Assembly: GCA_023485845.1 (NCBI GenBank)
Contig: JAMCZE010000010.1
Location: 156,046 to 220,045, forward strand
Length of the DNA stretch: 64,000 bases
Reading direction: 5' to 3'
Source of the DNA: Patescibacteria group bacterium
GTDB taxonomy: Bacteria > Patescibacteriota > Microgenomatia > JAMCZE01
How positions within the stretch are numbered: position 1 is the stretch's first letter; the number at the start of each line of letters is the position of its first letter. Shown in pieces: positions 8,961 to 56,118 of this stretch. A program made the position numbers and the translations under genes. The notes under the pieces were generated by a model that worked only from the letters and a program-made list of their open reading frames with translations, searched no databases and was not told where the DNA came from.

Positions 8961-9120
8961 TAATTTCATTTGAAGATTTTGAACGTAAAAAGTTTGAATG
9001 TGTTCCATCCGGGGCTGCTAAGAATAGTCTAGAGCGTATTGACGGCCTTAATTATGGCGTGACTGACAACAGGAACTTTGAAGAGTATTTGATCGGTGGT
9101 GCTATTCCCCACTCAACTCC

Positions 9121-9149
9121 TTGACAATCTTAAAAATACTTCCTACAAT
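9121..9149 (+). promoter_or_regulatory. sigma70-type promoter (TTGACA-17-TACAAT) with a 7-bp dyad operator (TATGAAT-GTAT-ATTCATA) just downstream, ahead of arsR
   Basis: Perfect consensus hexamers at 9121-9126 and 9144-9149. The dyad at 9149-9166 overlaps the arsR start region. Confidence 0.55.
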
Positions 9150-9153
9150 ATGA

Positions 9154-9522
9154 ATGTATATTCATATTATGTCGACAGAAACTAAAAAACTCCAGAAAAT
9201 ATTAAGTCTTATCGCCAATGACAATAAGCTAAAAATTGTCCTTCACCTGGCAAAAGGCGAAGCCTGTGTCTGCGATATGGGGGAAAAATTAGGAATTGAA
9301 CAATCGCTGGTTTCTCATCATCTTAATTCCTTAAAAGAAGCCAGACTGGTTAAGGATCGAAAAATCGGTGCATGGGTGCACTACTCTCTTAATAAGCAGG
9401 AGATGGAAAATTTTTTTCAACTAATTAGCAAACATCTCGGACCGAACAATATTTCCGGCAAAATGTGTTCGGTTCATGAGGCGTGTAAATGTCTGACGGA
9501 AGGAGTCGCGTATGCAACCTAA
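9154..9522 (+). CDS. arsR: ArsR/SmtB-family metalloregulator
   Basis: HTH plus the metal-binding CVCD motif (LAKGEACVCDMGEKLGIEQSLVSHHLNSLKEARLV). The true start may be MSTETKK at 9169. Confidence 0.85.
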   Translation: MYIHIMSTETKKLQKILSLIANDNKLKIVLHLAKGEACVCDMGEKLGIEQSLVSHHLNSLKEARLVKDRKIGAWVHYSLNKQEMENFFQLISKHLGPNNISGKMCSVHEACKCLTEGVAYAT

Positions 9523-9820
9523 ATTTATTATTTATGACCCGCCGATGTGTTGCTCAACCGGTGTCTGCGGACCCAACCCTGATCAATCCCTGATAAAACT
9601 GCAGGATACTCTGGCAGCCCTTAAAAAGTCCGGTTATGAGGTGGAAAGGTATCTTATCACCCAATCCCCGGAGAAATTCAAAGAAAATCCGGAAGTAATA
9701 AAACTAATTCAGGAACAACAATTAAAAGTCCTGCCAATTACTACCATGGACGGGGTAATTGTGAAGACCGGCGGTTATCCGGCATTGGAAGAATTTAAAA
9801 AGTTTGCTGAGAGCAAATAA
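9512..9820 (+). CDS. arsD: ArsD arsenic metallochaperone/repressor
   Basis: N-terminal MCCSTGVCG (vicinal Cys12-Cys13 plus Cys18 signature). About 100 aa. Sits between arsR and arsA. Confidence 0.85.
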   Translation: MQPKFIIYDPPMCCSTGVCGPNPDQSLIKLQDTLAALKKSGYEVERYLITQSPEKFKENPEVIKLIQEQQLKVLPITTMDGVIVKTGGYPALEEFKKFAESK

Positions 9821-9853
9821 ACAGAGTTTGTTTCTCGCTTAGCTCGAAATAAT

Positions 9854-11698
9854 ATGCGGACTAAATTTTATTTTTATTCAGGCAAGGGCGGGGTTGGCAA
9901 AACTACCATGGCCGCCGCCAGTGCTATTCATTTTGCCGCTTCAGGGAAGAAAACACTCATAATTACCACCGATCCCGCTTCAAATTTGGCCGATGTCTTT
10001 GAACAGCCGATTGGTCACAAAGTCACCTCAATTAAAGGAATACCAAACCTTTACGCGATGGAGCTTGATCCGGATATTGCCACGGCGGAATACAAGGAAA
10101 GAACTCTGGCTCCCCTACGGGGGCTTATCCCCGTTGAAAGTTTTGCCGTTCTTGAAGAGCAACTTAATTCCCCCTGCACCGCGGAAATGGCCGCTTTTGA
10201 CCGTTTCACTGATTTCTTAGGGGAATCGGAATATGAAGTTGTCATCTTTGATACGGCACCGACGGGTCACACTCTCCGACTTTTAGAATTGCCGGTTGAA
10301 TGGAGTGGCGTGATTGAAAAAGCTGCCAATGATGGCAGTGGCGGCCAAACCTGTATCGGTCCGGCAGCCGCCCTTGCCGAGTCCAAGGCGAAATTCGACA
10401 GGGCAATCAACGCTATGCGGGATCCCAGGCAAACTGTTTTTGTTTTTGTCCTAAGACCGGAAGTAACCCCCATATACGAAGCCAAAAGATCAATCGCTGA
10501 ACTCTTAAAATTAAAGATCACTTCACAGGAGCTTATCGTCAACAGCATTTACCCTAAAAGTGCCTGTGACAATCCCTTTATGCTCCGACGTTTTGCTAAG
10601 CAACAGGAGTTTTTGCAAAACATCAAAGATGCTTTTTCCATTCCGATTACCCTAATGGAACTTGAGCCGGGGGAAATAAAAGGCGGAAAACTCCTAACAA
10701 TCATCGGAAAAAAACTTTATGAAAAACCGATTATGCTTGCCGACTACACACCGGAAAAGATTGAAATAAAAGGAGACGGAATCACCAATAAATTTCCTAA
10801 GACCGGTAAAAATATCGTCAGCCTTCTGACCCCGAAAAACGGCAACAGACGAACGATATTTTTCGCCGGGAAAGGTGGTGTCGGCAAAACGTCAGTATCA
10901 GCCGCTACCGCTATTTGGGTCGCTAATCAGGGCTATAAAACTCTGCTTTTAACCACCGATCCGGCTTCCCACCTGGGTCAGATCTTTGAAACAGAAGTAA
11001 CCGATAAACCCACTCCAATTAAAGATCAACCAAACCTTTTTGTTACCAGGATTGATGCCCAAAAAGCCACCCGGGAATATAAGGAAAAAATTCTCGCTGA
11101 AGCCCGCCGGAAGTTTGATCAAAACCGGGTGATGGCCATTGAAGAAGAGCTAAACTCCCCCTGCACGGAAGAGATGGCGACTTTTGAAAAGTTTATTGAG
11201 TTTGCCACACTAAAAGATTTTCAGGTGGTCGTTTTTGACACCGCCCCCACCGGCCACACTCTCCGCCTGTTGGAATTACCGGTTGACTGGAATAAGCAGC
11301 TGGAAATCAAAACCTTTACCTCGACTGGGGAAACCGAGGTGGACAAAATCACTAAATCCCGCTTCAAAGAGGTTATCGACATGATGCAGGACATTGAAAA
11401 AACGACTTTCAGTTTTGTCATGTATCCCGAGTCCACGCCGATTGAGGAAGCCAGCCGGGCAATGAAGGAACTTCTGACCATCGGCGTCCCAACGGGACTG
11501 GTGGTAGCTAACTTTATTCTGCCGGATTCGATTGTTACCAATGACTACCTTAAGAAGCGTAAGGCGATGCAGGACAAATACCTTAAAGAGATGGATACCC
11601 GCTTTACCGCTCCCATTGTAAAGCTGTCTCTTCTGCCTGATGATTTAATTGGCAAAGATAAATTAGAAGAAGCCGGTTATTTACTTTATGGAAAATAA
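9854..11698 (+). CDS. arsA: ArsA arsenite-stimulated ATPase (two homologous halves)
   Basis: Two P-loops (GKGGVGKTT, GKGGVGKTS) and two DTAPTGHTLRLL signature sequences. 614 aa. Confidence 0.95.
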   Translation: MRTKFYFYSGKGGVGKTTMAAASAIHFAASGKKTLIITTDPASNLADVFEQPIGHKVTSIKGIPNLYAMELDPDIATAEYKERTLAPLRGLIPVESFAVLEEQLNSPCTAEMAAFDRFTDFLGESEYEVVIFDTAPTGHTLRLLELPVEWSGVIEKAANDGSGGQTCIGPAAALAESKAKFDRAINAMRDPRQTVFVFVLRPEVTPIYEAKRSIAELLKLKITSQELIVNSIYPKSACDNPFMLRRFAKQQEFLQNIKDAFSIPITLMELEPGEIKGGKLLTIIGKKLYEKPIMLADYTPEKIEIKGDGITNKFPKTGKNIVSLLTPKNGNRRTIFFAGKGGVGKTSVSAATAIWVANQGYKTLLLTTDPASHLGQIFETEVTDKPTPIKDQPNLFVTRIDAQKATREYKEKILAEARRKFDQNRVMAIEEELNSPCTEEMATFEKFIEFATLKDFQVVVFDTAPTGHTLRLLELPVDWNKQLEIKTFTSTGETEVDKITKSRFKEVIDMMQDIEKTTFSFVMYPESTPIEEASRAMKELLTIGVPTGLVVANFILPDSIVTNDYLKKRKAMQDKYLKEMDTRFTAPIVKLSLLPDDLIGKDKLEEAGYLLYGK

Positions 11699-12059
11699 TA
11701 TGAACGATTTTAATCAAAAGGTTAATGATTTTACTACCCTTATTCTGGAAACCCCCGAGTTTGCAGAACTCAAAGCAGCCACAGAAGAATTAAAAAAAGA
11801 TCCAAAGGCGACAAAACTAATAGACGACGTTCAAGCTAAAAAAGAAACAGTTATGACTTTACAGCAAACTGGATTACCAGTTTCCAAAAACCAGGAGCTT
11901 GATTTACAAGATGCTTTTGCCAACATGCGTTCCAACCCTACCTGTATGCGGCTTATTAAAGCCCAAAACGCTGCTATCCAAATAGCTAGAAAAGTATGCA
12001 ATCGGTTGACAGTGGCAACGGGAATACCCTTCTCCAGGGGCGGCGGTTGTTGCGGATAA
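11688..12059 (+). CDS. YlbF/YheA (UPF0342)-like helical protein with a C-terminal GGGCCG tail
   Basis: 123 aa. Helical pattern resembles the YlbF family. It ends in RGGGCCG, a vicinal Cys pair. Overlaps the arsA stop. Confidence 0.45.
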   Translation: MENNMNDFNQKVNDFTTLILETPEFAELKAATEELKKDPKATKLIDDVQAKKETVMTLQQTGLPVSKNQELDLQDAFANMRSNPTCMRLIKAQNAAIQIARKVCNRLTVATGIPFSRGGGCCG

Positions 12060-12063
12060 TTTT

Positions 12064-12546
12064 ATGCACAAATTTTATAAACTCCAATCGTTAGTTCTGC
12101 TCGCCGGGACAATTTTTGTCTGGTTCACGGTTTATACTGATTTCAGTCGATTTTATAAATTCTATGGCTCTTTAACCCGTATACAAAATTGCGTTATCCC
12201 CAACCCCATAACTACGCCATGTTTTTATGGTGCCTTTGCTTTCTTAATTGCTTTTATTTGGTCACTGTTTATCCTCAAAAAGAAAGTTGAAGAAAGATTG
12301 CCCCAGGAAATTAAACTAAGAATCCTTTTGATCGCTTCTACAATTTTCGCTTGGAGCAACTTTTTCTTGGGAATCAATCAATATTATTCTGCTATAAGCG
12401 GCCCAAAAGTTTCTTGTTCCGGAGTACCGACAAATAACCCCATTCTCACTGCTTGTTTTTTTGGTTCGATTATATTTTTGATAGCTCTTGCCGTTTCAAT
12501 AACTATTATCCGTAGCAATAGGCATTCTGCTGATAGTAGTTGCTAA
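12064..12546 (+). CDS. small 4-TM membrane protein with an internally duplicated TM-(Cys-x10-12-Cys loop)-TM unit
   Basis: 160 aa. Loops CVIPNPITTPCFYG and CSGVPTNNPILTACFFG each sit between two hydrophobic helices. Confidence 0.5.
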   Translation: MHKFYKLQSLVLLAGTIFVWFTVYTDFSRFYKFYGSLTRIQNCVIPNPITTPCFYGAFAFLIAFIWSLFILKKKVEERLPQEIKLRILLIASTIFAWSNFFLGINQYYSAISGPKVSCSGVPTNNPILTACFFGSIIFLIALAVSITIIRSNRHSADSSC

Positions 12547-12596
12547 CGTAGTTCACTAGGGACTGCCATTTTTCTAGGCACGATTTTAATATCAAA

Positions 12597-13775
12597 CTAC
12601 ATTAGGCCCGCAAAAGGAATCGAACTAATAAAACTTTTTTCCAGAATATCTAGCCCTCTATTTAAGTTTCTATTGCTAATTATCGCTGGTGGAAAAATAT
12701 CAATTACTCTTTCGTTAAGAGCCTCAATAACTAGCCCGTTTTCCAAACATTTATCAGCTATTTTCTTGGCCAATCCGTCTCGTTCAAACTCTATGAATGT
12801 TGCTAAACCTTTGCTGCGAATAGTACTCCCACTGGGTAAGTTCATACTTAAAAGTCTTTTATTAATAATTAAATTTAGTGAATTTACTTTTCCCAAAATA
12901 CTTTGTTTGTTTTTTAAAAAGTATTTTAGATATGCTAGCGTGATATCCACGTTAAGTGGTTGCCATGCAAATGTTGAATAATAGCTAAATTCAAATTCCA
13001 TCGTTTTCGCCAGTTTTTGATTCATAAGAGTTGCTCCTAAAACGGCATTCCCACCCGTTAATCCCTTTCCCAAACAAACAATATCTGGGAACAAATCAAA
13101 GTATTCTGAAGCAAACATTTTACCCGTTCGACCAAACCCTGTAGCTACCTCATCAATGATAAAAACAGTGCCATATTTTTTACAGGATTCCTGAACTAAT
13201 TGAAAATATTCTTTGCTTGGCTCAACTAGTCCGTTATTAAATATAAACGGTTCGGAAATGTAAGCAGCAATATCTCCCTTATTTATTCTATTAGCTACTT
13301 TTTGTCCAATTTTTCTATCTAGCTGCCCTTTAACCTTTTCGCAGGGCCACAAATGCGGAAATAAATCTTTGTAATGGGAAAACCCTACACTTAAAGCGGC
13401 TAATGAGTGACCATGATATCCTTCTGGAGAAATAAATTTCGATCTCTTAGTATGAAGGATTGCCGCTTGGAGAGCAATTTCGACAGCTTCGGTACCACCT
13501 GTTGCCCGAAAGACCTTTCCCATTTTTCCCGGCGCAATAGAAATCAGTAACTTAGCCAATTCTTCCCATGGTTCGTAAGAGAAGTTTGGATCAACGTAGG
13601 TCGGGCCAAGAAAGTTTTTTCTGGCACTTTGTACTTCCGGGAGACTCCAACCTAAGATACCGCACCAGTTAGTAGAGAAATCAATATATTTCTTGCCAGA
13701 AACGTCGAACAAGTTCTCCCCCTTGGCAGATTTAACATTAATTCTTCTTGCCGGAACATCTCGACCTAAATACAT
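12597..13775 (-). CDS. class III PLP-dependent aminotransferase
   Basis: Motifs DEVATGFGRTGKMFA and LGKGLTGG (PLP-lysine region). 392 aa. Confidence 0.85.
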   Translation of the reverse strand: MYLGRDVPARRINVKSAKGENLFDVSGKKYIDFSTNWCGILGWSLPEVQSARKNFLGPTYVDPNFSYEPWEELAKLLISIAPGKMGKVFRATGGTEAVEIALQAAILHTKRSKFISPEGYHGHSLAALSVGFSHYKDLFPHLWPCEKVKGQLDRKIGQKVANRINKGDIAAYISEPFIFNNGLVEPSKEYFQLVQESCKKYGTVFIIDEVATGFGRTGKMFASEYFDLFPDIVCLGKGLTGGNAVLGATLMNQKLAKTMEFEFSYYSTFAWQPLNVDITLAYLKYFLKNKQSILGKVNSLNLIINKRLLSMNLPSGSTIRSKGLATFIEFERDGLAKKIADKCLENGLVIEALNERVIDIFPPAIISNRNLNRGLDILEKSFISSIPFAGLM

Positions 13776-13906
13776 AAATCACAATAAGGCCTATTCTATC
13801 ATTTACCTTGGTAACAAGTTGCTGACATAGTTTATTAGGGTCTGCCAATTTTCTAGGCACGATTTTCGTAACAAACAACGTCAGACCCGCAAGAGGAATC
13901 GGACTT

Positions 13907-14620
13907 CTAAAAATTTTTACCAGTTCTGGAGATTTCGTCAATGAAACTTAAATTACCTTTAAAGGCTTTAACGATATTGATTTCTCTCATGAAAGCTTCC
14001 TTTGTCTGAAACGGTTTCGTGATGTAATTTTCTACTTCTGCTGCCTTAACCCACTCGTATTTACCTTCCTCACTTTCTACTAATTTACCTTCTGGATTTC
14101 TGAAAACGCATAACGCCAATAATAAATCGTCAAGTAATTCGCTCGTGGCTTCGTCAAGCGTGCAGTAGTGTAAAATTGCCACCACTTCCGGCTCACCGTT
14201 TAATCCTGTTTCTTCAAATAACTCTCTTTTCGCTGCGTCACCAAATCTTTCACCTAATTCCACTTTCCCTGCGGGAAAACCCTGACAACCATAAAATGGG
14301 TGTTTTAATCTAGTGTAAAGTAAAAACTTGGCGCCTTCCTTTTCTTCTTTTACACAGCACACTGCTACCCCAATTTTTGCTTGCTGGCGAATAGTTGCTT
14401 CCCCCAAATCCATACGTGCAGCAAATTTTTTCCCTTGTGTTGTTAAATAATATTTTCCGTCGTTTTTTTGAATACGACCTAATTTAATAAGCTGGTCCAA
14501 ATGAAACTGAAACTGGTTATTACCCATATCTTTATCTGGCTTAAGCTTGGTATAAGAGAGAGGCTGTTCGAAGGCAAGTTTCTTAATTATCTCAAGTTGG
14601 GTCTTATGTATATTCTCCAT
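13907..14620 (-). CDS. NUDIX hydrolase with an N-terminal winged-helix DNA-binding domain
   Basis: Nudix box GFPAGKVELGERFGDAAKRELFEETGL in the C-terminal half. The N-terminal roughly 90 aa is wHTH-like. Confidence 0.7.
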   Translation of the reverse strand: MENIHKTQLEIIKKLAFEQPLSYTKLKPDKDMGNNQFQFHLDQLIKLGRIQKNDGKYYLTTQGKKFAARMDLGEATIRQQAKIGVAVCCVKEEKEGAKFLLYTRLKHPFYGCQGFPAGKVELGERFGDAAKRELFEETGLNGEPEVVAILHYCTLDEATSELLDDLLLALCVFRNPEGKLVESEEGKYEWVKAAEVENYITKPFQTKEAFMREINIVKAFKGNLSFIDEISRTGKNF

Positions 14621-14889
14621 ATAAAGGGATTATACCTTGCTAGCAGCTCATTTCTAGTCTAGCCTTATTGACTACGCAGAAGATACTAGAACCGCCCTGC
14701 ATTTTCTTGGTAGTAGTTACTACTACAGTTCACTGGGATCTACTTGTGCAAGCATTACACAACTATAAACTTTTGAGCACAATAAGTTCGAATGTGTTCC
14801 ATCCAGGGCTGCCAATTTTCACTTTCAGAGTATTTAGCTACTATGTTGAATGGTACTGTCAAGTACCCCTTTTGTTGCACACTCTTTCT

Positions 14890-15654
14890 CTAAACCCGGC
14901 TTAGAAATTTTGCCTTGAATTTGACCGGGGAAGTCTTGAGCTTGGTGTGGATCCTCTCGTGGTTGTAATAGTTGATGGTTTTGTGAATAGCCTCCACAAA
15001 CTCGCCGATCGTCTCAAATCTTTCAAATTCCAATCCTAAGTCTGTTTTAAAGTTGTCGTAGAAGGATTCCTGGTAACCGTTCTCCCAAGGACTGGCTTTA
15101 GCAGACATGCTCACCTGGATTCCCAGGCCTTCTAAAAAGTTGGTGTAATCCTTCGAGTTGTACTCGGCTCCCTGATCAGTGTGAGCCACTACTGGTTTAC
15201 CCACTGTTTTAATGGCATCCAAGAAAGCCTCAAGAACCAACTCTGTAGTGTGCCTGGTGGAAATTGACCAGCCAACAATTTCCCGGGTAAACAGATCCAT
15301 AAAAGTGGCTAGGTAAATAATCCTCTGGTTCCAGGCTAGCCGGGTAAAATCCCCGGCAAAATAGACTCGGGGTTTGATGGGACAACTACCCTTAATTAGA
15401 TTGGGAAACTTTGACAGTGGATTTCCCCAATCTTTCTTTTTTGTCCACCTGGCCTTTCTCTTGTAGGGTTTAATCCCAAATAATTTCATCACTCGTCTGA
15501 CTCGTTTCTTCCCGATTTCCAAAGCCAAAGCTACTCTCCGGTGGCCATAACTAGGATTAGTTTCCAAGATCTTAAGGATTTGCTCTTTTAGAGCCGAATC
15601 TTTTGTCCCTTGCCTAAGGTTGTCGGTGTAAAGATTTCTTCGGGAGATGCCCAA
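14890..15654 (-). CDS. IS3-family transposase OrfB (DDE integrase core)
   Basis: rve-type core: D in HTDQGAEY, E in SPWENGYQESF. The frame is open upstream to the A-run. The track start is TTG. Confidence 0.85.
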   Translation of the reverse strand: MGISRRNLYTDNLRQGTKDSALKEQILKILETNPSYGHRRVALALEIGKKRVRRVMKLFGIKPYKRKARWTKKKDWGNPLSKFPNLIKGSCPIKPRVYFAGDFTRLAWNQRIIYLATFMDLFTREIVGWSISTRHTTELVLEAFLDAIKTVGKPVVAHTDQGAEYNSKDYTNFLEGLGIQVSMSAKASPWENGYQESFYDNFKTDLGLEFERFETIGEFVEAIHKTINYYNHERIHTKLKTSPVKFKAKFLSRV

Positions 15655-15706
15655 AGAATTGGAAATAAGGGACTTGGGTATTTGAGGAAGCTTGGCTTCG
15701 ACAATT

Positions 15707-15961
15707 TTACCTAAGTTTCTTTTTTTTTACCTTCTCCACTTCCAGAGACAAAACCCCAATGATCTCCTTTAGTTGCCGGTTCTCTTTTTTAAGTCTCAGG
15801 TGCTCAATCCAGCTGACTTTGTTGGTGGTGTTCCACCTAAGCCAGCCATAAATGGTTTTGGGGGAGATTCCGTAAGTTTGGGCCAGAGTGGCGGCAGATT
15901 CCCCGGATTTAATCTTGGCCAGGACCTCCTCTTTGACCTCTTTGGCAATAGCGGTTTTCAA
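15707..15961 (-). CDS. IS3-family transposase OrfA (HTH plus leucine zipper)
   Basis: 84 aa, HTH (LAQTYGISPKTIYGWLRW). It ends in the A9G slippery run GTAAAAAAAAAG. Confidence 0.85.
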   Translation of the reverse strand: MKTAIAKEVKEEVLAKIKSGESAATLAQTYGISPKTIYGWLRWNTTNKVSWIEHLRLKKENRQLKEIIGVLSLEVEKVKKKKLR

Positions 15962-16011
15962 AAATATTCACCCCCTTAAATAAGTGTCCTTAGTTTACAG
16001 ACACTGTGTGC

Positions 16012-16040
16012 ATTTTAAGGGGTACCTGTCCTACTGTCAA
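16012..16040 (-). promoter_or_regulatory. junction promoter formed by the abutted IS3 ends: TTGACA (16040-16035), 17-nt spacer, TAAAAT (16017-16012), reading toward orfA of copy A
   Basis: The -35 hexamer lies in the end of copy B and the -10 hexamer in the end of copy A. The 17-nt spacer was read directly from the sequence. Confidence 0.6.
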
Positions 16041-16067
16041 GTACCCCTTTTGTTGCACACTCTTTCT

Positions 16068-16832
16068 CTAAACCCGGCTTAGAAATTTTGCCTTGAATTT
16101 GACCGGGGAAGTCTTGAGCTTGGTGTGGATCCTCTCGTGGTTGTAATAGTTGATGGTTTTGTGAATAGCCTCCACAAACTCGCCGATCGTCTCAAATCTT
16201 TCAAATTCCAATCCTAAGTCTGTTTTAAAGTTGTCGTAGAAGGATTCCTGGTAACCGTTCTCCCAAGGACTGGCTTTAGCAGACATGCTCACCTGGATTC
16301 CCAGGCCTTCTAAAAAGTTGGTGTAATCCTTCGAGTTGTACTCGGCTCCCTGATCAGTGTGAGCCACTACTGGTTTACCCACTGTTTTAATGGCATCCAA
16401 GAAAGCCTCAAGAACCAACTCTGTAGTGTGCCTGGTGGAAATTGACCAGCCAACAATTTCCCGGGTAAACAGATCCATAAAAGTGGCTAGGTAAATAATC
16501 CTCTGGTTCCAGGCTAGCCGGGTAAAATCCCCGGCAAAATAGACTCGGGGTTTGATGGGACAACTACCCTTAATTAGATTGGGAAACTTTGACAGTGGAT
16601 TTCCCCAATCTTTCTTTTTTGTCCACCTGGCCTTTCTCTTGTAGGGTTTAATCCCAAATAATTTCATCACTCGTCTGACTCGTTTCTTCCCGATTTCCAA
16701 AGCCAAAGCTACTCTCCGGTGGCCATAACTAGGATTAGTTTCCAAGATCTTAAGGATTTGCTCTTTTAGAGCCGAATCTTTTGTCCCTTGCCTAAGGTTG
16801 TCGGTGTAAAGATTTCTTCGGGAGATGCCCAA
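16068..16832 (-). CDS. IS3-family transposase OrfB (copy B)
   Basis: Identical to 14890-15654. Confidence 0.85.
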   Translation of the reverse strand: MGISRRNLYTDNLRQGTKDSALKEQILKILETNPSYGHRRVALALEIGKKRVRRVMKLFGIKPYKRKARWTKKKDWGNPLSKFPNLIKGSCPIKPRVYFAGDFTRLAWNQRIIYLATFMDLFTREIVGWSISTRHTTELVLEAFLDAIKTVGKPVVAHTDQGAEYNSKDYTNFLEGLGIQVSMSAKASPWENGYQESFYDNFKTDLGLEFERFETIGEFVEAIHKTINYYNHERIHTKLKTSPVKFKAKFLSRV

Positions 16833-16884
16833 AGAATTGGAAATAAGGGACTTGGGTATTTGAGGAAGCTTGGCTTCGACAATT

Positions 16885-17139
16885 TTACCTAAGTTTCTTT
16901 TTTTTTACCTTCTCCACTTCCAGAGACAAAACCCCAATGATCTCCTTTAGTTGCCGGTTCTCTTTTTTAAGTCTCAGGTGCTCAATCCAGCTGACTTTGT
17001 TGGTGGTGTTCCACCTAAGCCAGCCATAAATGGTTTTGGGGGAGATTCCGTAAGTTTGGGCCAGAGTGGCGGCAGATTCCCCGGATTTAATCTTGGCCAG
17101 GACCTCCTCTTTGACCTCTTTGGCAATAGCGGTTTTCAA
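16885..17139 (-). CDS. IS3-family transposase OrfA (copy B)
   Basis: Identical to 15707-15961. Confidence 0.85.
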   Translation of the reverse strand: MKTAIAKEVKEEVLAKIKSGESAATLAQTYGISPKTIYGWLRWNTTNKVSWIEHLRLKKENRQLKEIIGVLSLEVEKVKKKKLR

Positions 17140-17332
17140 AAATATTCACCCCCTTAAATAAGTGTCCTTAGTTTACAGACACTGTGTGCATTTTAAGGGG
17201 TACCTGTCCACTTTATAAAGATAATGCAACCATAAGGCAAGCGGATTTCCCATTGTTAATTGATGTTTTTTTTGAAAATGCTAAGCCTAATATCCAAAAA
17301 CTTTTGGCTGTAGAAGCAGAAATTATTAGAGA

Positions 17333-17877
17333 GTGACACTCCTCGCAGCAAGCTGCGAGGCATCTGCATTGCTAAAATAGCCTGAGTTGGTCTTTTGATA
17401 TTTGGACATAGTCTTTTGGTCTTCCTTGGTTTCTGATGTACTTTTGGATGACTGTCTCAGAATTGCTTCGTCCTACTGAATTTACGAAATACCCGTCAGT
17501 CCAAAACTGGGCTCCCCAAAGGCTTTCCCTCAACCCGGCAACTCGTTTGAGAAGTTCCCGGGCCAGGATACTTTTGACCGTTCTGGCAATTTTGGTAGGA
17601 GAATATGTAGGCACTGACTGGATCAAAAAATGGACATGATCACCGTCGGCCCCAATCTCCACAAAATGCATCTCGTACCTTTGGGAAATTTCCTGACAGA
17701 TCTGTTTTAGTTGGGCATCCACCTCTGTCGAGATCACGAGTTGCCTTCCCTTGGCCACACAAACCAGATGGTACAAAAGCACCGAGACATTGTGCGCTTT
17801 GTGTATGTAGATACTCACGCATACAATTTTACCCTCTCGCGGCAAAGCCGCGGGGAATGAACCCTAAAAGAGATTCA
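17333..17877 (-). mobile_element. IS200/IS605-family insertion sequence, copy 2
   Basis: Identical to the 545-bp copy 1. Confidence 0.85.
17372..17845 (-). CDS. tnpA: IS200-like Y1 transposase TnpA (copy 2)
   Basis: Identical to 1594-2067. Confidence 0.9.
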   Translation of the reverse strand: MPREGKIVCVSIYIHKAHNVSVLLYHLVCVAKGRQLVISTEVDAQLKQICQEISQRYEMHFVEIGADGDHVHFLIQSVPTYSPTKIARTVKSILARELLKRVAGLRESLWGAQFWTDGYFVNSVGRSNSETVIQKYIRNQGRPKDYVQISKDQLRLF

Positions 17878-17899
17878 CAATCTTAAAATAGCTTTTAAT

Positions 17900-18355
17900 T
17901 CAGATAACCAGTTTTGCAAAAAGACTTTTGGAGGGAGGCGTGAGTTTAACCTTTGCTAATTCTTCAAGAGTAAACCATTTGTATTCTGACAATTCATCAT
18001 CAAGCTGAACTTTTACCTCACTGCTATTTCTATCATTGATGTCAATTCGATAGACGTTGAAATGCATTTCAACAAGAACCCTCTCATTTGTGTCCTTTAA
18101 GGTTTTTTCTGATGTTCCCGTTCCCTCATCATTAACAAGTTCAGTTGCGTACCCTTCAACCTCTAACCCTATTTCTTCTTTCAGTTCTCTTCTTAATGCC
18201 TGAGTCTTGTTTTCGCCTTGATCCACACCTCCTCCTGGAATATGCCAGCAATCAATATAAACTCCACCGCCAGTTGGATTCTTTTTTACCATCAATAATC
18301 TTTTATCTTTTGAAAAAAGTAAGCCCGATACAATTTCTCTCTTGATCGTTCTCAT
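17900..18355 (-). CDS. NUDIX hydrolase
   Basis: Nudix box GGGVDQGENKTQALRRELKEEIGL. 151 aa. Lies between IS200 copies 2 and 3. Confidence 0.85.
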   Translation of the reverse strand: MRTIKREIVSGLLFSKDKRLLMVKKNPTGGGVYIDCWHIPGGGVDQGENKTQALRRELKEEIGLEVEGYATELVNDEGTGTSEKTLKDTNERVLVEMHFNVYRIDINDRNSSEVKVQLDDELSEYKWFTLEELAKVKLTPPSKSLFAKLVI

Positions 18356-18380
18356 ATTATTTCTTTACGTTGTAATGTAA

Positions 18381-18925
18381 GTGACACTCCTCGCAGCAAG
18401 CTGCGAGGCATCTGCATTGCTAAAATAGCCTGAGTTGGTCTTTTGATATTTGGACATAGTCTTTTGGTCTTCCTTGGTTTCTGATGTACTTTTGGATGAC
18501 TGTCTCAGAATTGCTTCGTCCTACTGAATTTACGAAATACCCGTCAGTCCAAAACTGGGCTCCCCAAAGGCTTTCCCTCAACCCGGCAACTCGTTTGAGA
18601 AGTTCCCGGGCCAGGATACTTTTGACCGTTCTGGCAATTTTGGTAGGAGAATATGTAGGCACTGACTGGATCAAAAAATGGACATGATCACCGTCGGCCC
18701 CAATCTCCACAAAATGCATCTCGTACCTTTGGGAAATTTCCTGACAGATCTGTTTTAGTTGGGCATCCACCTCTGTCGAGATCACGAGTTGCCTTCCCTT
18801 GGCCACACAAACCAGATGGTACAAAAGCACCGAGACATTGTGCGCTTTGTGTATGTAGATACTCACGCATACAATTTTACCCTCTCGCGGCAAAGCCGCG
18901 GGGAATGAACCCTAAAAGAGATTCA
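18381..18925 (-). mobile_element. IS200/IS605-family insertion sequence, copy 3
   Basis: Identical to the 545-bp copy 1. Confidence 0.85.
18420..18893 (-). CDS. tnpA: IS200-like Y1 transposase TnpA (copy 3)
   Basis: Identical to 1594-2067. Confidence 0.9.
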   Translation of the reverse strand: MPREGKIVCVSIYIHKAHNVSVLLYHLVCVAKGRQLVISTEVDAQLKQICQEISQRYEMHFVEIGADGDHVHFLIQSVPTYSPTKIARTVKSILARELLKRVAGLRESLWGAQFWTDGYFVNSVGRSNSETVIQKYIRNQGRPKDYVQISKDQLRLF

Positions 18926-19174: not shown

Positions 19175-19295
19175 TAGCTGGTTGAGGATTTAAGAACTGT
19201 CTGATCTTTCCAACGTCAAAAGAGCTTATTTCATGCCAAACTTGTCGAAGTTCGGACACGAAGGCCTGCCCTTGAAATTCTGCTAAAATACACAC

Positions 19296-19637
19296 ATGCA
19301 AATTGCCACCGGAACTGTCCACACGGTGCCCCCGGACTTGAAAAAAGCCCTGGCGGCTGACCCCGGCGCGCTGGAAAAATGGAACAGTCTGACGCCGCTG
19401 GCCCGAAACGAATGGATTTGCTGGACAACTTTTGTTAAAAAAGCGCAGACCAGGGAAGAGCACGTTGACCGGGTGTGCTCCGAACTTAAAGACGGCATGC
19501 GCCGGCCGTGTTGCTGGCTAGGCTGCATTCACCGCCCCGACAAACCCCTAAGTCCGTCAGTGAAATATGTGCTTAGCCGAAAAAATATGGTAAAATGGAG
19601 GCATGGTGAATTGGTCCACGGACGAAAAAAAGTTTAA
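19296..19637 (+). CDS. YdeI/OmpD-associated family protein
   Basis: Pattern LKKALAADPGALEKWNSLTPLARNEWICW...AQTREEHVDRV is typical of that family. Confidence 0.6.
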   Translation: MQIATGTVHTVPPDLKKALAADPGALEKWNSLTPLARNEWICWTTFVKKAQTREEHVDRVCSELKDGMRRPCCWLGCIHRPDKPLSPSVKYVLSRKNMVKWRHGELVHGRKKV

Positions 19638-19854
19638 GCGGAACTATCCCAGGGAATATAAACTTTGGCACTTAATCCAACTTATTAATTATGGACTTGA
19701 AGGGGAGAAGCTTGACGAGAAAGAGGTTAGGAAAGCCTGGCCAAGAATAAGGGACCAGTTAGACCCCCATAAGGCAACTTATCTTGAATTCTTATTATGG
19801 GATCACAAACCATCCTCAATCCAATTCAACGAGAATTTCTGGGCCTTATCATAA
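19603..19854 (+). CDS. hypothetical 83-aa protein overlapping the start of the next gene
   Basis: ORF only. 58-bp overlap with the NTase gene in another frame. Confidence 0.3.
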   Translation: MVNWSTDEKKFKRNYPREYKLWHLIQLINYGLEGEKLDEKEVRKAWPRIRDQLDPHKATYLEFLLWDHKPSSIQFNENFWALS

Positions 19855-20462
19855 AGGAACCATATATTCTCAAACATTATTACTGGACCGGTGGGACCGC
19901 ACTGGCTGAATTCTATCTTCGCCATCGGGAATCGGAAGATATTGATCTGTTTTCGGAAAACGAAGTTAATGTCGGGGCGATCTCAAATTTCGTTGGAGCG
20001 ATGGCCAAAAAAATTGAAGCGACCGATATAACCAGCCAGCGTTTCCTTGGGCTCTACAGTTTCACTTTCCACCTGCCGAAAACATCACTAAAAGTTGATT
20101 TTAACTACTATCCTTTCCTTCGAATTGATCAAAAGAAAAAATGGCAAGGATTAGCCGTTGACAGTCTCGAGGACATCGCCGTCAATAAAGTGCACACGAT
20201 GTTTATGAAGCCGCGGGCGAGGGATTTTGTTGATCTTTACTTTATTCTCAAAAAAGAATACGAGTTTTCTTTGGAAAGATTAATCAATCTAGCCGATGCC
20301 AAGTTTGATTGGCACATCGAACCGGTGCAGCTCGGAGAAAACTTTGCCAAAGTGGTTGCAATTAAAGATTTCCCAAAAATGCTCGTTCCTTTTGACAAAA
20401 AAGCCATGGAAAAATTTTTTCTGAATTTAGCAAAATCACTAAAACCGCAGATTTTCCAATAA
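19797..20462 (+). CDS. AbiEii/DUF1814-like nucleotidyltransferase
   Basis: The GGTAL...SEDIDLF motif (GSx10DxD NTase signature) lies near the N-terminus. About 220 aa. Confidence 0.5.
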   Translation: MGSQTILNPIQREFLGLIIKEPYILKHYYWTGGTALAEFYLRHRESEDIDLFSENEVNVGAISNFVGAMAKKIEATDITSQRFLGLYSFTFHLPKTSLKVDFNYYPFLRIDQKKKWQGLAVDSLEDIAVNKVHTMFMKPRARDFVDLYFILKKEYEFSLERLINLADAKFDWHIEPVQLGENFAKVVAIKDFPKMLVPFDKKAMEKFFLNLAKSLKPQIFQ

Positions 20463-33711: not shown

Positions 33712-34727
33712 AATACAAGCCGGAGATTGACATCCTCAAAGCGACCGCCATTATCGCCGTGGTTTTGATTCACGTCAGCGCCGCCTATATGGCCCACGGC
33801 TACGATCTAATTAACCTGACAGTCAACCAGGCCGCCCGTTTTGCAGTCCCTGTTTTTGTTGCTCTGTCCAGTTTTGGCTTGGCCGGTAAATACCTAGCAA
33901 CTAAGCTGGAGTTGAAAGATTTCTTCGTCCGTCGGGCCCTGCGGCTTTTACCCTGGTTTTTCTTCTGGGAGGTCATCATTTTTGTCACCGTCACCTATGT
34001 TTTGCGCCAAAGCTGGATTCTTTATGACGGGCTGCCATTATGGAAAATTTTTATACTCGGAAAGGCCGATTATCACCTCTATTTCGTGCCAATGATCTTC
34101 GTTCTTTATCTGTTTTTTCCGATATTATTGCAATTTATTAAACGCTTTCCAAAGCTGACCTTGCTAGCTGCTTTTCTGTTTCAAATTTACTGGTATTGGC
34201 AAATCACGACCCAAACCGAACTGCTTTCCAACCGCAATAATGTCTGGACGGACCAAATGCAATATCTCAACCCCCTCACCTGGATTTTTTACTTCGTTTT
34301 CGGCATGTTTTTAGCTCGTGCTAAAAGCTACAAGCTACAAGCTATTAGCCTAGTTGCTTTGTTAGTTGGTCTTGTCTGGACTGTTGCCAGTTCTGGTTAT
34401 CTGATGTCGTCTGGTTTTGAGATCACCGTCGCCACCCGTTTCACCCGCTTCCCGGTCCTACTCTACTCGATTGGGGTAATCTTGTCTGGCCTTCTCGTCT
34501 TACCTTCTCTCCCGCTTACCCGCTTACCCACTTTCCTCACCCGTCTTGGTAAATTATCGTTATTGGTTTATCTCTGCCACACCCTCGTTCTTCGCGCTGT
34601 GCCGCTAACCTTTCCCGAACCGATAGTCTTTATTTTAGTTTTGGCCGGCAGTTATCTCATCGCTGAAGTTTGCTCCCACATTAGCTTCAAGAGACCACCT
34701 CTCGTGAAGCTACTTGCAAAAAACTGA
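33705..34727 (+). CDS. acyltransferase-3 (OafA-like) family membrane acyltransferase
   Basis: N-terminal IDILKATAIIAVVLIHV motif plus about 10 TM segments. Confidence 0.75.
   Translation: MPKYKPEIDILKATAIIAVVLIHVSAAYMAHGYDLINLTVNQAARFAVPVFVALSSFGLAGKYLATKLELKDFFVRRALRLLPWFFFWEVIIFVTVTYVLRQSWILYDGLPLWKIFILGKADYHLYFVPMIFVLYLFFPILLQFIKRFPKLTLLAAFLFQIYWYWQITTQTELLSNRNNVWTDQMQYLNPLTWIFYFVFGMFLARAKSYKLQAISLVALLVGLVWTVASSGYLMSSGFEITVATRFTRFPVLLYSIGVILSGLLVLPSLPLTRLPTFLTRLGKLSLLVYLCHTLVLRAVPLTFPEPIVFILVLAGSYLIAEVCSHISFKRPPLVKLLAKN
34682..34712 (+). repeat. 31-bp hairpin-containing repeat tagcttcaagagaccacctctcgtgaagcta (left flank of the RAYT gene)
   Basis: Identical to 35408-35438. Contains the imperfect palindrome cttcaagaga-ccacc-tctcgtgaag. 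Confidence 0.8.
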
Positions 34728-34747: not shown

Positions 34748-35410
34748 ATGGCGGCCAAAAACTCGATCAAGGCTTACATCCCTGATGGCTACTACCATTT
34801 ATATAATCGTGGGGTTGCTAAAAATGATATTTACCACGATGAAGTTGACTACGCAGTTTTCTTATCCTATTTAAAAGCCTATTTGCTCCCCAAAGACGAA
34901 GAAAAACTACTAGCTATTGTTGCTTCTCCCCAGGCTAGTTATAAGGAAAAGTATCAGGCAACGAAGCTACTGAACTTAAAAAATTTCTGCGGGGAAATAA
35001 CCTTGCTGGCCTATGCTCTCATGCCTAATCATTTCCATTTGTTAATCAAGCAAAAATCGGCCAGCACAATCGATAATTTTATGAATGCGTTGGGCACCAG
35101 ATATGCTGGTTTCTTTAATCGCAAATATCATCGGGTGGGGCCGTTATTCCAGGGGGTTTACAAAGCCGTTCCGATCCAAACCGAAGAACAACTACTCCAT
35201 GTCTCCCGATATATTCACTTAAACCCTAAGGGACAAGGAAATCTGCCCACTTCTCTACCAGAATATCTTGGCCAACGCGACACCGCTTGGGTAAATAGCA
35301 GTGACATCTTGCACCACTTTAACAAGAAAAGTCAAAATAACTCTTATATTGATTTTATGAAAGCCGTTCCCGACTTGACCACAATTCCCCAACTATTAAT
35401 CGACCTTTAG
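34748..35410 (+). CDS. IS200-like/REP-associated Y1 (HUH) transposase (RAYT-type)
   Basis: N-terminal YHLYNRG, HUH motif MPNHFHLLI, catalytic Tyr region GPLFQGVYKAV. 220 aa. AT-rich. Confidence 0.75.
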   Translation: MAAKNSIKAYIPDGYYHLYNRGVAKNDIYHDEVDYAVFLSYLKAYLLPKDEEKLLAIVASPQASYKEKYQATKLLNLKNFCGEITLLAYALMPNHFHLLIKQKSASTIDNFMNALGTRYAGFFNRKYHRVGPLFQGVYKAVPIQTEEQLLHVSRYIHLNPKGQGNLPTSLPEYLGQRDTAWVNSSDILHHFNKKSQNNSYIDFMKAVPDLTTIPQLLIDL

Positions 35411-35438
35411 CTTCAAGAGACCACCTCTCGTGAAGCTA
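35408..35438 (+). repeat. 31-bp hairpin-containing repeat (right flank of the RAYT gene)
   Basis: Identical to 34682-34712. Confidence 0.8.
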
Positions 35439-35457
35439 ATCGCGGAGACATCCAGTG

Positions 35458-40936: not shown

Positions 40937-41431
40937 ATGGCAAACCAAAAAAACATTGATATTGTTTCTTCACTCTCGGAAAAACTTTCCCGGGCAAAAT
41001 CTGTCGTCCTCACCGACTACCGCGGCCTGACCCACAAACAATCGGAAGAACTGCACCGCGCCGTTAAAAAAGTCGGCGGTGAATATGTTATTGCCAAAAA
41101 CTCCCTTTTAAAAATAGCCTGCCTGCCGGCAGGCAGGCCGGTGCCCAATTTGACGGAGCCAACGGGAGCGCTCCTGGCTTATGACGACGCCCTGGCCCCC
41201 CTTAAGGAGCTGTTCAAAACCGTCAAGACTCTGGGGATTCCCAAAGTGAAGTTTGGTTTTATTGAAAACAAGGAGTACTCCGGTAGCGAAATTGAGACTA
41301 TCGCCAAAATCCCCTCTCGGGAAATCCTGCTGGGACAACTTGTTTTTACTCTGAACTACAACATTCAACAATTAGCATATGTTCTCGATCAAGTTAAAAA
41401 TCAAAAGTCAAAAGTCAAAAATTCAAGTTAA
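40937..41431 (+). CDS. rplJ: 50S ribosomal protein L10
   Basis: Position and sequence (VVLTDYRGLTHKQSEELHRAV...VIAKNSLL). Confidence 0.9.
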   Translation: MANQKNIDIVSSLSEKLSRAKSVVLTDYRGLTHKQSEELHRAVKKVGGEYVIAKNSLLKIACLPAGRPVPNLTEPTGALLAYDDALAPLKELFKTVKTLGIPKVKFGFIENKEYSGSEIETIAKIPSREILLGQLVFTLNYNIQQLAYVLDQVKNQKSKVKNSS

Positions 41432-41463
41432 AATTTTTAATTTTGTGTGAGAGGTGGTGAATT

Positions 41464-54195: not shown

Positions 54196-55368
54196 GTGTC
54201 TCGTTCTACCATTGCCATTATATCAGCCCTGGTGATCCTTGGTGGGGCAATTTTTGTGGCCATTGCCCTGGCCCGCGGCTTCCAATTTGACCTTTCGAAA
54301 AGATCTCTGTCACCCACCGGCATTCTGGTGGCCACTTCCGATCCCGACGGCGCCGAGGTTTTTATTAACAGCAAACTAGCCACTGCTACCAATAACACCA
54401 TTAATCTTGCCCCGGGCCGCTACAGCGTAAAAATTACCAAGGACGGTTTTGTCTCTTGGGAAAAAAACATTGAGATTAAGCCGGAGGAAGTCTACAAAAC
54501 TAATGTTTTTTTGTTTCCCTCCCTGCCGGATTTGCGGCCGCTGACTTTAACCGGCGCCCAGGATCCCAGTTTGTCCTCAGATGGCACCAAGATTGCCTAC
54601 GTGGTCGCCTCCGCGTCCGCTGCGGAACGCAATGGGGTGTGGATTGCCGACATGGGCCGGCTGATTCCCTCGCCGTTTGCTTCCAGCGCCGATCTGCGTC
54701 AAATCTACCGCGGCGACATTAGCACCGCCAGTTTTCTCTGGTCCCCCGACGGCACTCAACTGCTGGCGTCTGTCAGCGGGAAACTAAATATTCTTCTGGT
54801 GACCAGCCAAATTAATGACCAACCCACATTCCTGGCCACCCCCGGCGCCACCCTGGCTTTGTGGGCAAGCCAGGCGGCGGCAAAACTCGCCACCCAGGAA
54901 ACCAAGCTCGCCCCAACCGTGCTGGCCACCCTGGCGACCGCCAGCGCTGATCTCACTTTCTCCCCCGATGAAACTAAAATCCTCTACCAAGCCACTTCTT
55001 CCGCCTACTTACCTACTTACCTACTTACCTACTTACCGGGGACTAACCCGACCCCCCAAGTTCGCCATCTCACCGCCGGCAACACCTATGTTTATGACCT
55101 AAAAGAAGACCGAAATTATTTAATTAAAAACTGTTCTAATTGCACCTGGTTTCCGTCATCAAGGCATCTGTTGTCCCATACGGACAAGGTTATTTCGGCC
55201 ATGGAATATGACGGCACCAATGAGGCGATCCTCTATGCCGGACCATTTGTTCCTCCGCCGGCCGGCGGGGTTTTTGCCTGGCCCAATTGGAGCAAAATTG
55301 TCATCCTCACCTCCCTCAACGGCGCCGGGGGAATCGGAGAAAACTTGTACACGATTAATCTTAGATAA
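54196..55368 (+). CDS. PEGA-domain plus TolB-like beta-propeller protein, membrane anchored
   Basis: N-terminal TM. PEGA-like (PDGAEVFINSKLA) region. Repeated SPDG(T/E)K motifs of TolB-like blades. Confidence 0.6.
   Translation: MSRSTIAIISALVILGGAIFVAIALARGFQFDLSKRSLSPTGILVATSDPDGAEVFINSKLATATNNTINLAPGRYSVKITKDGFVSWEKNIEIKPEEVYKTNVFLFPSLPDLRPLTLTGAQDPSLSSDGTKIAYVVASASAAERNGVWIADMGRLIPSPFASSADLRQIYRGDISTASFLWSPDGTQLLASVSGKLNILLVTSQINDQPTFLATPGATLALWASQAAAKLATQETKLAPTVLATLATASADLTFSPDETKILYQATSSAYLPTYLLTYLPGTNPTPQVRHLTAGNTYVYDLKEDRNYLIKNCSNCTWFPSSRHLLSHTDKVISAMEYDGTNEAILYAGPFVPPPAGGVFAWPNWSKIVILTSLNGAGGIGENLYTINLR
55006..55037 (+). repeat. octanucleotide microsatellite (tacttacc) x4 inside the PEGA/TolB-like gene
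   Basis: Four exact tandem units. Encodes YLPTYLLTYLP. Confidence 0.85.
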
Positions 55369-55452
55369 TTTAAAAATCAAAATTTAAAAGTTAAAAGTTC
55401 GAGTTAAAATTATTAATTCTGACTTGCAATTTTGCCTTTTGATTTTTGAATT

Positions 55453-56118
55453 TTAACTTGTTTTTAACCGGGCAAACACCAGCAACCGTTCCAGCGTTGT
55501 TCCCGGTGGCCAACAGGTCTGGAGTGTCAGCATGGAGAAATTCGCCTGAGCGGTTAAATAGCCGGTGGCGTCCGGCGGGACAATCTTCTTGTCATAGACC
55601 ACGTAGATAAACCGCCGACCCTGGTAGAAAAGATCCACTTCATCGCCGGGGGCCAGCTCCCGCAGCAGATAGAACACCGCGTTCCAACGGTTGACTTCCC
55701 AGAAATTACCCACCGAATGGGCAAAAAGAAACACGTCACCGACCTGGCCAGGATTAACCGTTCCCCTGGCCTGGGCCACCCCTTGTTTTAAGGCCGCCAA
55801 ATACTCCGTTTCATTGCCCGGGTCAACATTGGGAATCACTTTCGCGTTAGCGTTAATCTTGGGAATAACCACGCCAAAATCGAGGTCCACTGGGGTGATT
55901 GGCAGAGTGTTGGGAGCCACGGCCAGGAGATTAGCTCGCTGCTGCGGTGTGTCCACCACCACAAACTGTTTGCCGGCCAGATTATCATAGCGATAAACCA
56001 CTTCCGCCTGGATCGCCGGAGAAAAGGTCAAAATGACCCCGGCAATCGCCGAAAGCAACAAAAAATTGCCAACAGTTCTCAAAACGAAAATTTTGATGAA
56101 ATCACTACCAATCGTCAT
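55453..56118 (-). CDS. sortase-family transpeptidase
   Basis: N-terminal TM. His in FAHS, the LTLQTC (TLxTC) active-site Cys motif, and a downstream Arg. Confidence 0.7.
   Translation of the reverse strand: MTIGSDFIKIFVLRTVGNFLLLSAIAGVILTFSPAIQAEVVYRYDNLAGKQFVVVDTPQQRANLLAVAPNTLPITPVDLDFGVVIPKINANAKVIPNVDPGNETEYLAALKQGVAQARGTVNPGQVGDVFLFAHSVGNFWEVNRWNAVFYLLRELAPGDEVDLFYQGRRFIYVVYDKKIVPPDATGYLTAQANFSMLTLQTCWPPGTTLERLLVFARLKTS

Follow-up and report, generated by a model that had tools for sequence, protein, structure and literature searches.

What do two similar 45-nt sequences, lying on the same strand at either edge of a group of accessory genes, represent? We addressed this question for a 64,000-nt stretch of contig JAMCZE010000010.1 (the window, positions 156,046 to 220,045) from a Patescibacteria group bacterium. 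How Patescibacteria (the candidate phyla radiation, CPR), with their tiny genomes, acquire accessory genes is poorly understood. The original prediction described direct repeats at 8977-9021 (copy A) and 14771-14815 (copy B) around an ars operon, an aminotransferase gene and a NUDIX gene, and its coordinates, common orientation and 38/45 identity were all reproduced. It proposed that the pair are attachment (att) sites of one integrated islet or, failing that, a repeated regulatory or RNA element. The analysis points elsewhere as to their origin: both repeats are left over, in the same orientation, from the final ~13 codons of a large serine recombinase (LSR) gene, antisense to the strand presented.

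The repeats as a recombinase gene end

Copies A and B have in common a 23-nt core, GAATGTGTTCCATCCRGGGCTGC, which occurs in the window at just these two sites when up to three mismatches are allowed, and not at all in 100 dinucleotide-preserving shuffles. At E<1, a hidden Markov model (HMM) made from 18 copies of the element (see below) likewise finds only copies A and B in the window. Minus-strand translation of all 18 gives QPWME[HDNS][IVLT]RT[FY][YC]xQ, and the replacements in this frame are conservative (I/V/L, F/Y, H/D/N/S). When the six frames were compared by BLOSUM62, using copies not biased by the search pattern, the tail frame (m2) was the best, with a mean score of -0.14 for differing residues versus -0.73 to -2.12. 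Two other candidate coding frames, the plus-strand peptide FERKKFECVPSRAA and the minus-strand frame LAALDGTHSNFL, were rejected; both lack ORF (open reading frame) continuity and have a worse substitution score than m2.

The identity of the gene emerged from a second locus, L048, which is a 20.8-kb view of the genome represented by contig L003. The copy at the right end of its array is the C-terminus of a 123-codon minus-strand ORF (fragment a), which reads ..KRDILATIGSNLILEDGKL..LWIQNPSVQPWMENLRTFCAQNYLFVE before the stop codon; the C-terminal end of this ORF is ..VQPWMENLRTFCAQNYLFVE. Fragment b, from the same locus, reads ..KRELLRFVVSNLILKDGKLDITLRLPFNIVAKYAKNENWQGLVNYVSNFYREN.. and aligns to positions 417-497 of a phage protein of 533 aa (34% identity over 89 aa; E = 2e-4 in a phage collection, 1e-10 in a pairwise comparison). 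The phage protein has the Pfam domains Resolvase, Recombinase and Zn_ribbon_recom, that is, it is an LSR. A further match of fragment b (E = 3e-3) is to the C-terminus of a 'recombinase family protein' from a Legionella plasmid. Fragment a aligns to the C-terminal 73 residues of the phage LSR (E = 1e-6), which places VQPWMEN opposite the terminal VKGWCPN. Both fragments show LSR homology in the region after the coiled coil. A tblastn search of the window and the other loci with the full LSR revealed neither a resolvase catalytic domain nor a full-length LSR, only these C-terminal fragments, and we therefore regard them as remnants and not as a gene.

In the window, nucleotide alignment confines the similarity of copies A and B to 45 nt. 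At the protein level, the homology of copy B extends rightward by another ~41 nt to the end of an IS3-family insertion sequence (IS) dimer. The upstream continuation of copy B is ...PFNIVAKYSESENW, cut by the dimer at 14856/14857, and the minus strand of copy B together with these 41 nt reads PFNIVAKYSESENWQPW.., matching PFNIVAKYAKNENWQ of fragment b. Because this extension matches fragment b and the IS3 inverted repeat starts at 14857, copy B is by its sequence the end of an LSR gene that was destroyed by the IS3 dimer. The copies at the array ends thus run into a longer 3' part of the LSR gene, of 33 codons in the window and 123 codons in L048. Both fragments are 5'-truncated by IS3-type sequences, and in both arrays that show such a fragment it occupies the sense-upstream end. 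Copy A has an in-frame stop codon directly upstream of its 45-nt tail.

The junction in L048 (16721-16768) joins the 5' end of the 123-codon fragment to an IS3-type inverted repeat (TGCCAAGCACCCCTTTTGTTGCACAC..) and ~45 nt from inside the IS. The inverted repeat closely resembles the left inverted repeat (IRL) of the IS3 element in the window, and so the same IS family abuts the same gene in two genomes, at differing positions and in differing orientations.

A second direct repeat of 107 nt and 82% identity lies inside the block, at 12538-12644 and 13817-13923. On the minus strand, the two remnants that contain its arms, r1 and r2, read as a b-type variant of the recombinase tail (62% identity over 21 residues). 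The 45-mer nucleotide HMM did not detect the 107-nt repeats, so their kinship to the 45-mer rests on the protein level. With r1 and r2, the tail remnants in the window, all co-oriented, number four (A, r1, r2 and B), and they bound three modules: 3.5 kb with the ars operon and two further genes, 1.2 kb with the aminotransferase gene and 0.85 kb with the NUDIX gene. The GC content of the ars operon is 0.44, compared with 0.36-0.39 in its neighbours (36% in the left flank), and the modules differ among themselves. None of the genes of the block encodes a recombinase or an integrase. That four co-oriented LSR-tail remnants delimit three modules beside an IS3-disrupted LSR gene is well supported by the sequence comparisons. 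The annotation of the window would change accordingly: ars, aminotransferase and NUDIX become three separately bounded modules next to a disrupted recombinase gene, not one islet.

The aminotransferase ORF terminates within r1 (12597-12644) in a different frame. Its last ~16 codons therefore come from the remnant, which puts the module border inside the 3' end of the ORF.

The same element in other genomes

The core was scanned once each through genome and metagenome collections. The whole 45-mer was found in eight unrelated contigs from metagenome-assembled genomes or metagenomes (L002, L003, L007, L008, L012, L013, L015 and L016), which have 34-43% GC and unrelated flanking genes; the remaining hits were chance matches to the core alone. 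An HMM built from the copies found in these scans was then used to seek diverged copies in the same contigs. The resulting counts were four copies in L012 and three in L008 (each within 2 kb), three in L003, two in L007 and two in the window. L048 contains exactly three. In all five multi-copy loci the copies are co-oriented within the contig, for which the chance expectation is ~1/512. The element is 75-78% identical between contigs, compared with 27-34% for the 45 nt on either side.

The intervals between copies often contain a single ORF, in either orientation, and measure 0.3-1.2 kb; some are ~5.5 kb long. In L012, four copies enclose three intervals of one ORF each, with gaps of 0-30 nt between ORF and element, while L003/L048 has one single-ORF interval and one of 5.5 kb. 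Genes next to the copies point in both directions about equally. The cargo comprises NUDIX, GNAT, AbiEii, DinB-like, GIY-YIG and ArsR proteins, and no homologues were found for the single-ORF module of L003 (an ORFan). The original prediction had named dispersed copies unrelated to island borders as an outcome that would reduce the element to a generic repeat; all of the further copies that we found are at module borders. The window encodes an AbiEii protein that is 46% identical to the AbiEii protein of L008; the 45-mer directly follows the L008 gene, not the gene in the window.

Many copies from different contigs have a common upstream boundary, just before CAG CCC TGG. In L012, L015 and L008, the homology of some copies reaches ~8 codons further upstream (FE[AV]K..QPW). 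Remnant lengths are 45, ~66, at least 99, 107, ~370 and ~470 nt. At positions 1830-1880 of L007 there is a weak match to the ENWQGLVNYVSN-type second tail variant (17 aa, 65% identical, E = 0.03); it is on the same sense strand as the two 45-mers of this contig and may be a third remnant.

Searches in other directions yielded little. The 45-mer gave only chance matches of 17-22 nt against plasmids and phages, and scans of viral contigs with nucleotide and back-translated patterns gave chance matches or none. A six-frame peptide query against an index of 5.8 billion proteins returned no candidates, although the X spacers may have weakened this query, and the 34-aa tail from the window had a single, chance match to a repeat protein among 1.84 billion representatives. 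Homologues of the winged helix-turn-helix (wHTH)-NUDIX protein in other Microgenomates-type contigs were found in three ordinary contexts, with the element absent nearby. A literature search for the 45-mer string gave nothing relevant, and full-text searches yielded no description of arrays of recombinase gene tails.

Proposed serial insertion at the gene end and its alternatives

How could such arrays have arisen? We consider it somewhat more probable than not (roughly 0.55) that the tails are att-type scars, left by successive insertions at the LSR gene's 3' end. Modules would have been added successively by site-specific insertion at this end, each bringing its own copy of the gene end; the incoming copy would restore the reading frame, and the previous end would be displaced downstream as a scar. 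Insertion at a gene 3' end is suggested because co-oriented partial copies of that end, together with an array-end copy that runs into the gene, are its known signature. Several features argue that the tails are, or recently were, recombination sites and not random debris: solo tails are highly conserved and their flanks unrelated, many copies from different contigs have a common boundary, the spacing is one ORF, and no genuine copy from the collection scans is part of an intact gene. The protein-like variation fits a model in which any tail may, at one time or another, act as the recombinase C-terminus. The att sites of LSRs are ~40-50 bp long and show imperfect dyad symmetry about a central dinucleotide; partner sites differ and have only the 2-bp crossover in common. 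The length of the 45-mer fits attP or attB of an LSR. The copies are all alike, with no P and B types.

A number of observations weigh against serial insertion. The similarity that ties fragments a and b to LSRs amounts to 23-34% identity over 80-105 residues. An intact LSR with this tail was not found in the loci examined, in the protein libraries or in viral contigs, and none of the 10 genuine copies from the collection scans (0/10) lies in an intact gene. The modules are devoid of a recombinase, as far as the genes of the block and the scanned ORFs of the other loci are concerned. The 45-mer has no conserved dyad, and its left arm varies without compensation. The remnants differ in length, and so there is no single breakpoint.

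One alternative, the one put forward originally, takes copies A and B as the attL and attR sites of a single 5.7-kb islet carrying the ars, aminotransferase and NUDIX genes. Direct repeats do occur at both ends of the interval, and the ars operon does stand out from its neighbours in GC content. However, two more co-oriented remnants of the same gene tail lie within the block, splitting the 5.8-kb interval into three modules; the block is compositionally mosaic and has no integrase; and the same element, which belongs to a widespread family, separates single ORFs in arrays elsewhere. One undivided block bounded by this pair is therefore improbable. The idea of att-like borders was right in kind, as the copies are co-oriented, mark module borders in an accessory region of low GC content and stem from a recombinase gene's 3' end; it was wrong in the unit and in the origin of the repeats. 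In another alternative, the copies are inert pseudogene fragments without a role as sites, left behind when several prophages or integrative elements with LSR genes decayed at random. Fragment lengths that range from 45 to ~470 nt, an IS-rich and rearranged region, and the failure of tblastn with the full LSR to reveal an intact gene in the window and loci are all in keeping with debris. Against it, the element is 75-78% identical between unrelated contigs whose flanks are at background; orientation is strictly common within contigs; the spacing can be as close as a single ORF between copies, gaps being 0-30 nt; and the copies of many contigs begin at the same boundary before CAG CCC TGG. Recurrent remnants of only 45 nt are not expected from random deletion, and we judge this explanation unlikely, if less so than the single islet.

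The copies are intergenic, strongly conserved and often placed right after a stop codon, as might be expected of a cis-acting RNA or regulatory DNA element (terminator, UTR (untranslated region) motif, small RNA or operator) recurring between genes. This part of the original prediction has very little left in its favour. Rfam returned no match, either at its gathering thresholds or with E<=10. The mean folding z-scores of the 18 copies on the two strands were +0.8/+0.5 without flanks and +0.2/-0.05 with 40-nt flanks, and neither the consensus nor the copies, including both from the window, fold better than shuffled sequences, whether treated as RNA or as single-stranded DNA, on either strand. 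Moreover, neighbouring genes face either way in equal numbers, and the differences between copies respect a protein frame that continues into LSR ORFs. The sole dyad, TTTGAGC-N7-GTTCGAA, has lost its left arm in many copies without compensation. Two hairpins, GARY..GUUC and GARYRY..GUGUUC, looked plausible on transitions alone and failed with unbiased copies and folding statistics. Other identities were tried and dropped: a tRNA or tmRNA fragment (nothing from ARAGORN; manual arm checks failed), and an integron attC site (no hairpin fold, no IntI found). A dif/Xer site, a sigma-70 or sigma-54 promoter, a Ter site and a relaxase nic site were also dropped, since each bore only a weak resemblance by eye. 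Since the copies fold no better than shuffles, the defining hairpin of attC is absent. The Phage_integrase family is absent among the window ORFs. No tyrosine integrase or other recombinase was seen among the window ORFs or the 25 families listed of 59 matched by 44 ORFs of L002, L003, L007 and L016, nor in L048 among the precomputed Pfam hits or the seven ORFs scanned.

Serial insertion at the LSR gene end has parallels in several known systems. Staphylococcal cassette chromosome (SCC) elements use the large serine recombinases CcrAB or CcrC and insert at the 3' end of rlmH in staphylococci. They too form tandem modules with or without their own recombinase, with co-oriented repeats of the target gene's 3' end between them, and an LSR is involved. 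In SCC the copied end belongs to a housekeeping gene, whereas here it is that of the recombinase gene itself; the repeats are 45-107 nt long compared with ~15-30 nt in SCC, many of the modules are single ORFs, and catalysis by an LSR is putative. Genomic islands and tycheposon-type elements accrete at the 3' ends of tRNA and tmRNA genes, and there, as here, co-oriented partial copies of the 3' end mark successive insertions, with the intact gene at the end of the array in tRNA islands. Unlike in those islands, the target here would be a protein-coding recombinase gene, there is no tRNA or tmRNA at the sites (ARAGORN, Rfam) and no tyrosine integrase nearby. Integrons and clusters of attC sites lacking integron-integrases (CALINs) resemble the arrays in having sites of one orientation with compact cargo typical of cassettes between them, mostly a single ORF at a time. 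The sites here do not fold like attC, are conserved in sequence and not in structure, and originate from a serine recombinase gene tail; no IntI was found, and the ORFs face either way. In SSV1-type integrases and in integration-dependent immunity of mycobacteriophages, attP lies inside a gene 3' end or the integrase gene. The recombination site proposed here would similarly overlap a coding 3' end, insertion swapping the C-terminal tail, but those systems have one element and one site, and arrays of cargo modules are not part of them. On this comparison, the logic of the arrays resembles the accretion of SCC and tRNA islands, and their layout resembles integron arrays. The distinguishing point, as read from the sequences, is that the repeated unit is a serine recombinase gene tail, in Patescibacteria-type genomes.

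A more far-reaching version of the mechanism is conceivable, but we hold it to be doubtful: an LSR-based cassette platform, the serine recombinase counterpart of the integron. The LSR gene would carry the insertion site within its own last ~13 codons. At this site the LSR would integrate small circular cassettes, each consisting of one ORF and a copy of the gene tail, and it would excise them between adjacent tails. Every site would have to be capable of serving as the C-terminus of the enzyme, which would account for protein-like variation and ~76% identity across unrelated Patescibacteria-type genomes. Provided that the sites are active, the arrays would constitute a cassette system that relies on a serine recombinase, as opposed to the tyrosine recombinase of integrons. 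More generally, the arrays suggest serial stacking of genes at the end of a recombinase gene, both here and in other uncultivated Patescibacteria-type bacteria. The conserved, orientation-locked 45-nt marker provides a handle for finding gene-capture arrays in metagenomes, and it points to a candidate enzyme, an LSR ending in QPWMExIRTFYAQ.

Remnants, modules and surroundings in the window

The remnants and modules of the window are listed in Table 1.

Table 1. LSR gene remnants, cargo modules and the adjoining IS3 dimer (window coordinates).
Feature	Position	Strand	Description
Copy A	8977-9021	-	Solo 45-nt remnant of the LSR gene 3' end; minus strand reads QPRMEHIQTFYVQ
Module 1 cargo	9154-12546	+	arsR, arsD, arsA, YlbF-like gene, 160-aa membrane ORF
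Remnant r1	12512-12644	-	Second LSR-tail variant, ..LILKSCLEKWQSLVNYVSNYYQQN; includes 107-nt repeat arm 12538-12644
Module 2 cargo	12597-13775	-	Class-III aminotransferase
Remnant r2	13815-13923	-	Other arm of the 107-nt repeat; LSR-tail variant ..CLENWQTLINYVSN
Module 3 cargo	13907-14620	-	wHTH-NUDIX gene
Copy B with upstream extension	14755-14856	-	Last 33 codons and stop codon of the LSR gene, VPFNIVAKYSESENWQPWMEHIRTYCAQKFIVV
IS3-family tandem dimer	14857-17209	-	Copy 1 14857-16031, TAC spacer, copy 2 16035-17209; truncates the LSR gene

The IS3 dimer is arranged head to tail, with the 3-bp TAC spacer (16032-16034) between the right inverted repeat (IRR) and IRL. TAC also precedes copy 1, and ACT follows copy 2. 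The lack of a target duplication on the right side and the absence there of the remaining recombinase gene are consistent with an IS-mediated deletion; tblastn with the full LSR did not find the body of the gene to the right of the dimer or beyond the IS cluster. Rightward of the dimer there are IS200-type copies. The window contains three near-identical copies of the IS200-type Y1 transposase (1551-2067 and 17329-18893), two of which enclose a 151-aa NUDIX gene (17900-18355) in a tandem unit of 1048 bp. All contigs with the flanking proteins of the window are from the same strain and are broken at IS copies.

The first 20.4 kb of the window have 38-44% GC and contain accessory genes, while the rest has ~50% GC and contains housekeeping genes (ArgRS, LeuRS, MreB, ATP synthase). 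The step from ~38-44% to ~50% is at the AbiEii/SpoU-methylase junction (20462; region ~19200-20462). In the housekeeping part, a 220-aa Y1_Tnp-like gene (34748-35410) that resembles RAYTs (REP-associated tyrosine transposases) is flanked by hairpin-forming 37-nt repeats (34681-34717 and 35407-35443, 95% identical), of which an inverted copy is found at 59834-59870; this looks like an arrangement of repetitive extragenic palindromic (REP) sequences and a RAYT. A+T-rich low-complexity repeats of the AAAGTCAAAAG type occur in direct and inverted orientation at 41391-41445, 55367-55460 and 58711-58755, in intergenic positions near tRNA-Arg and tRNA-Pro.

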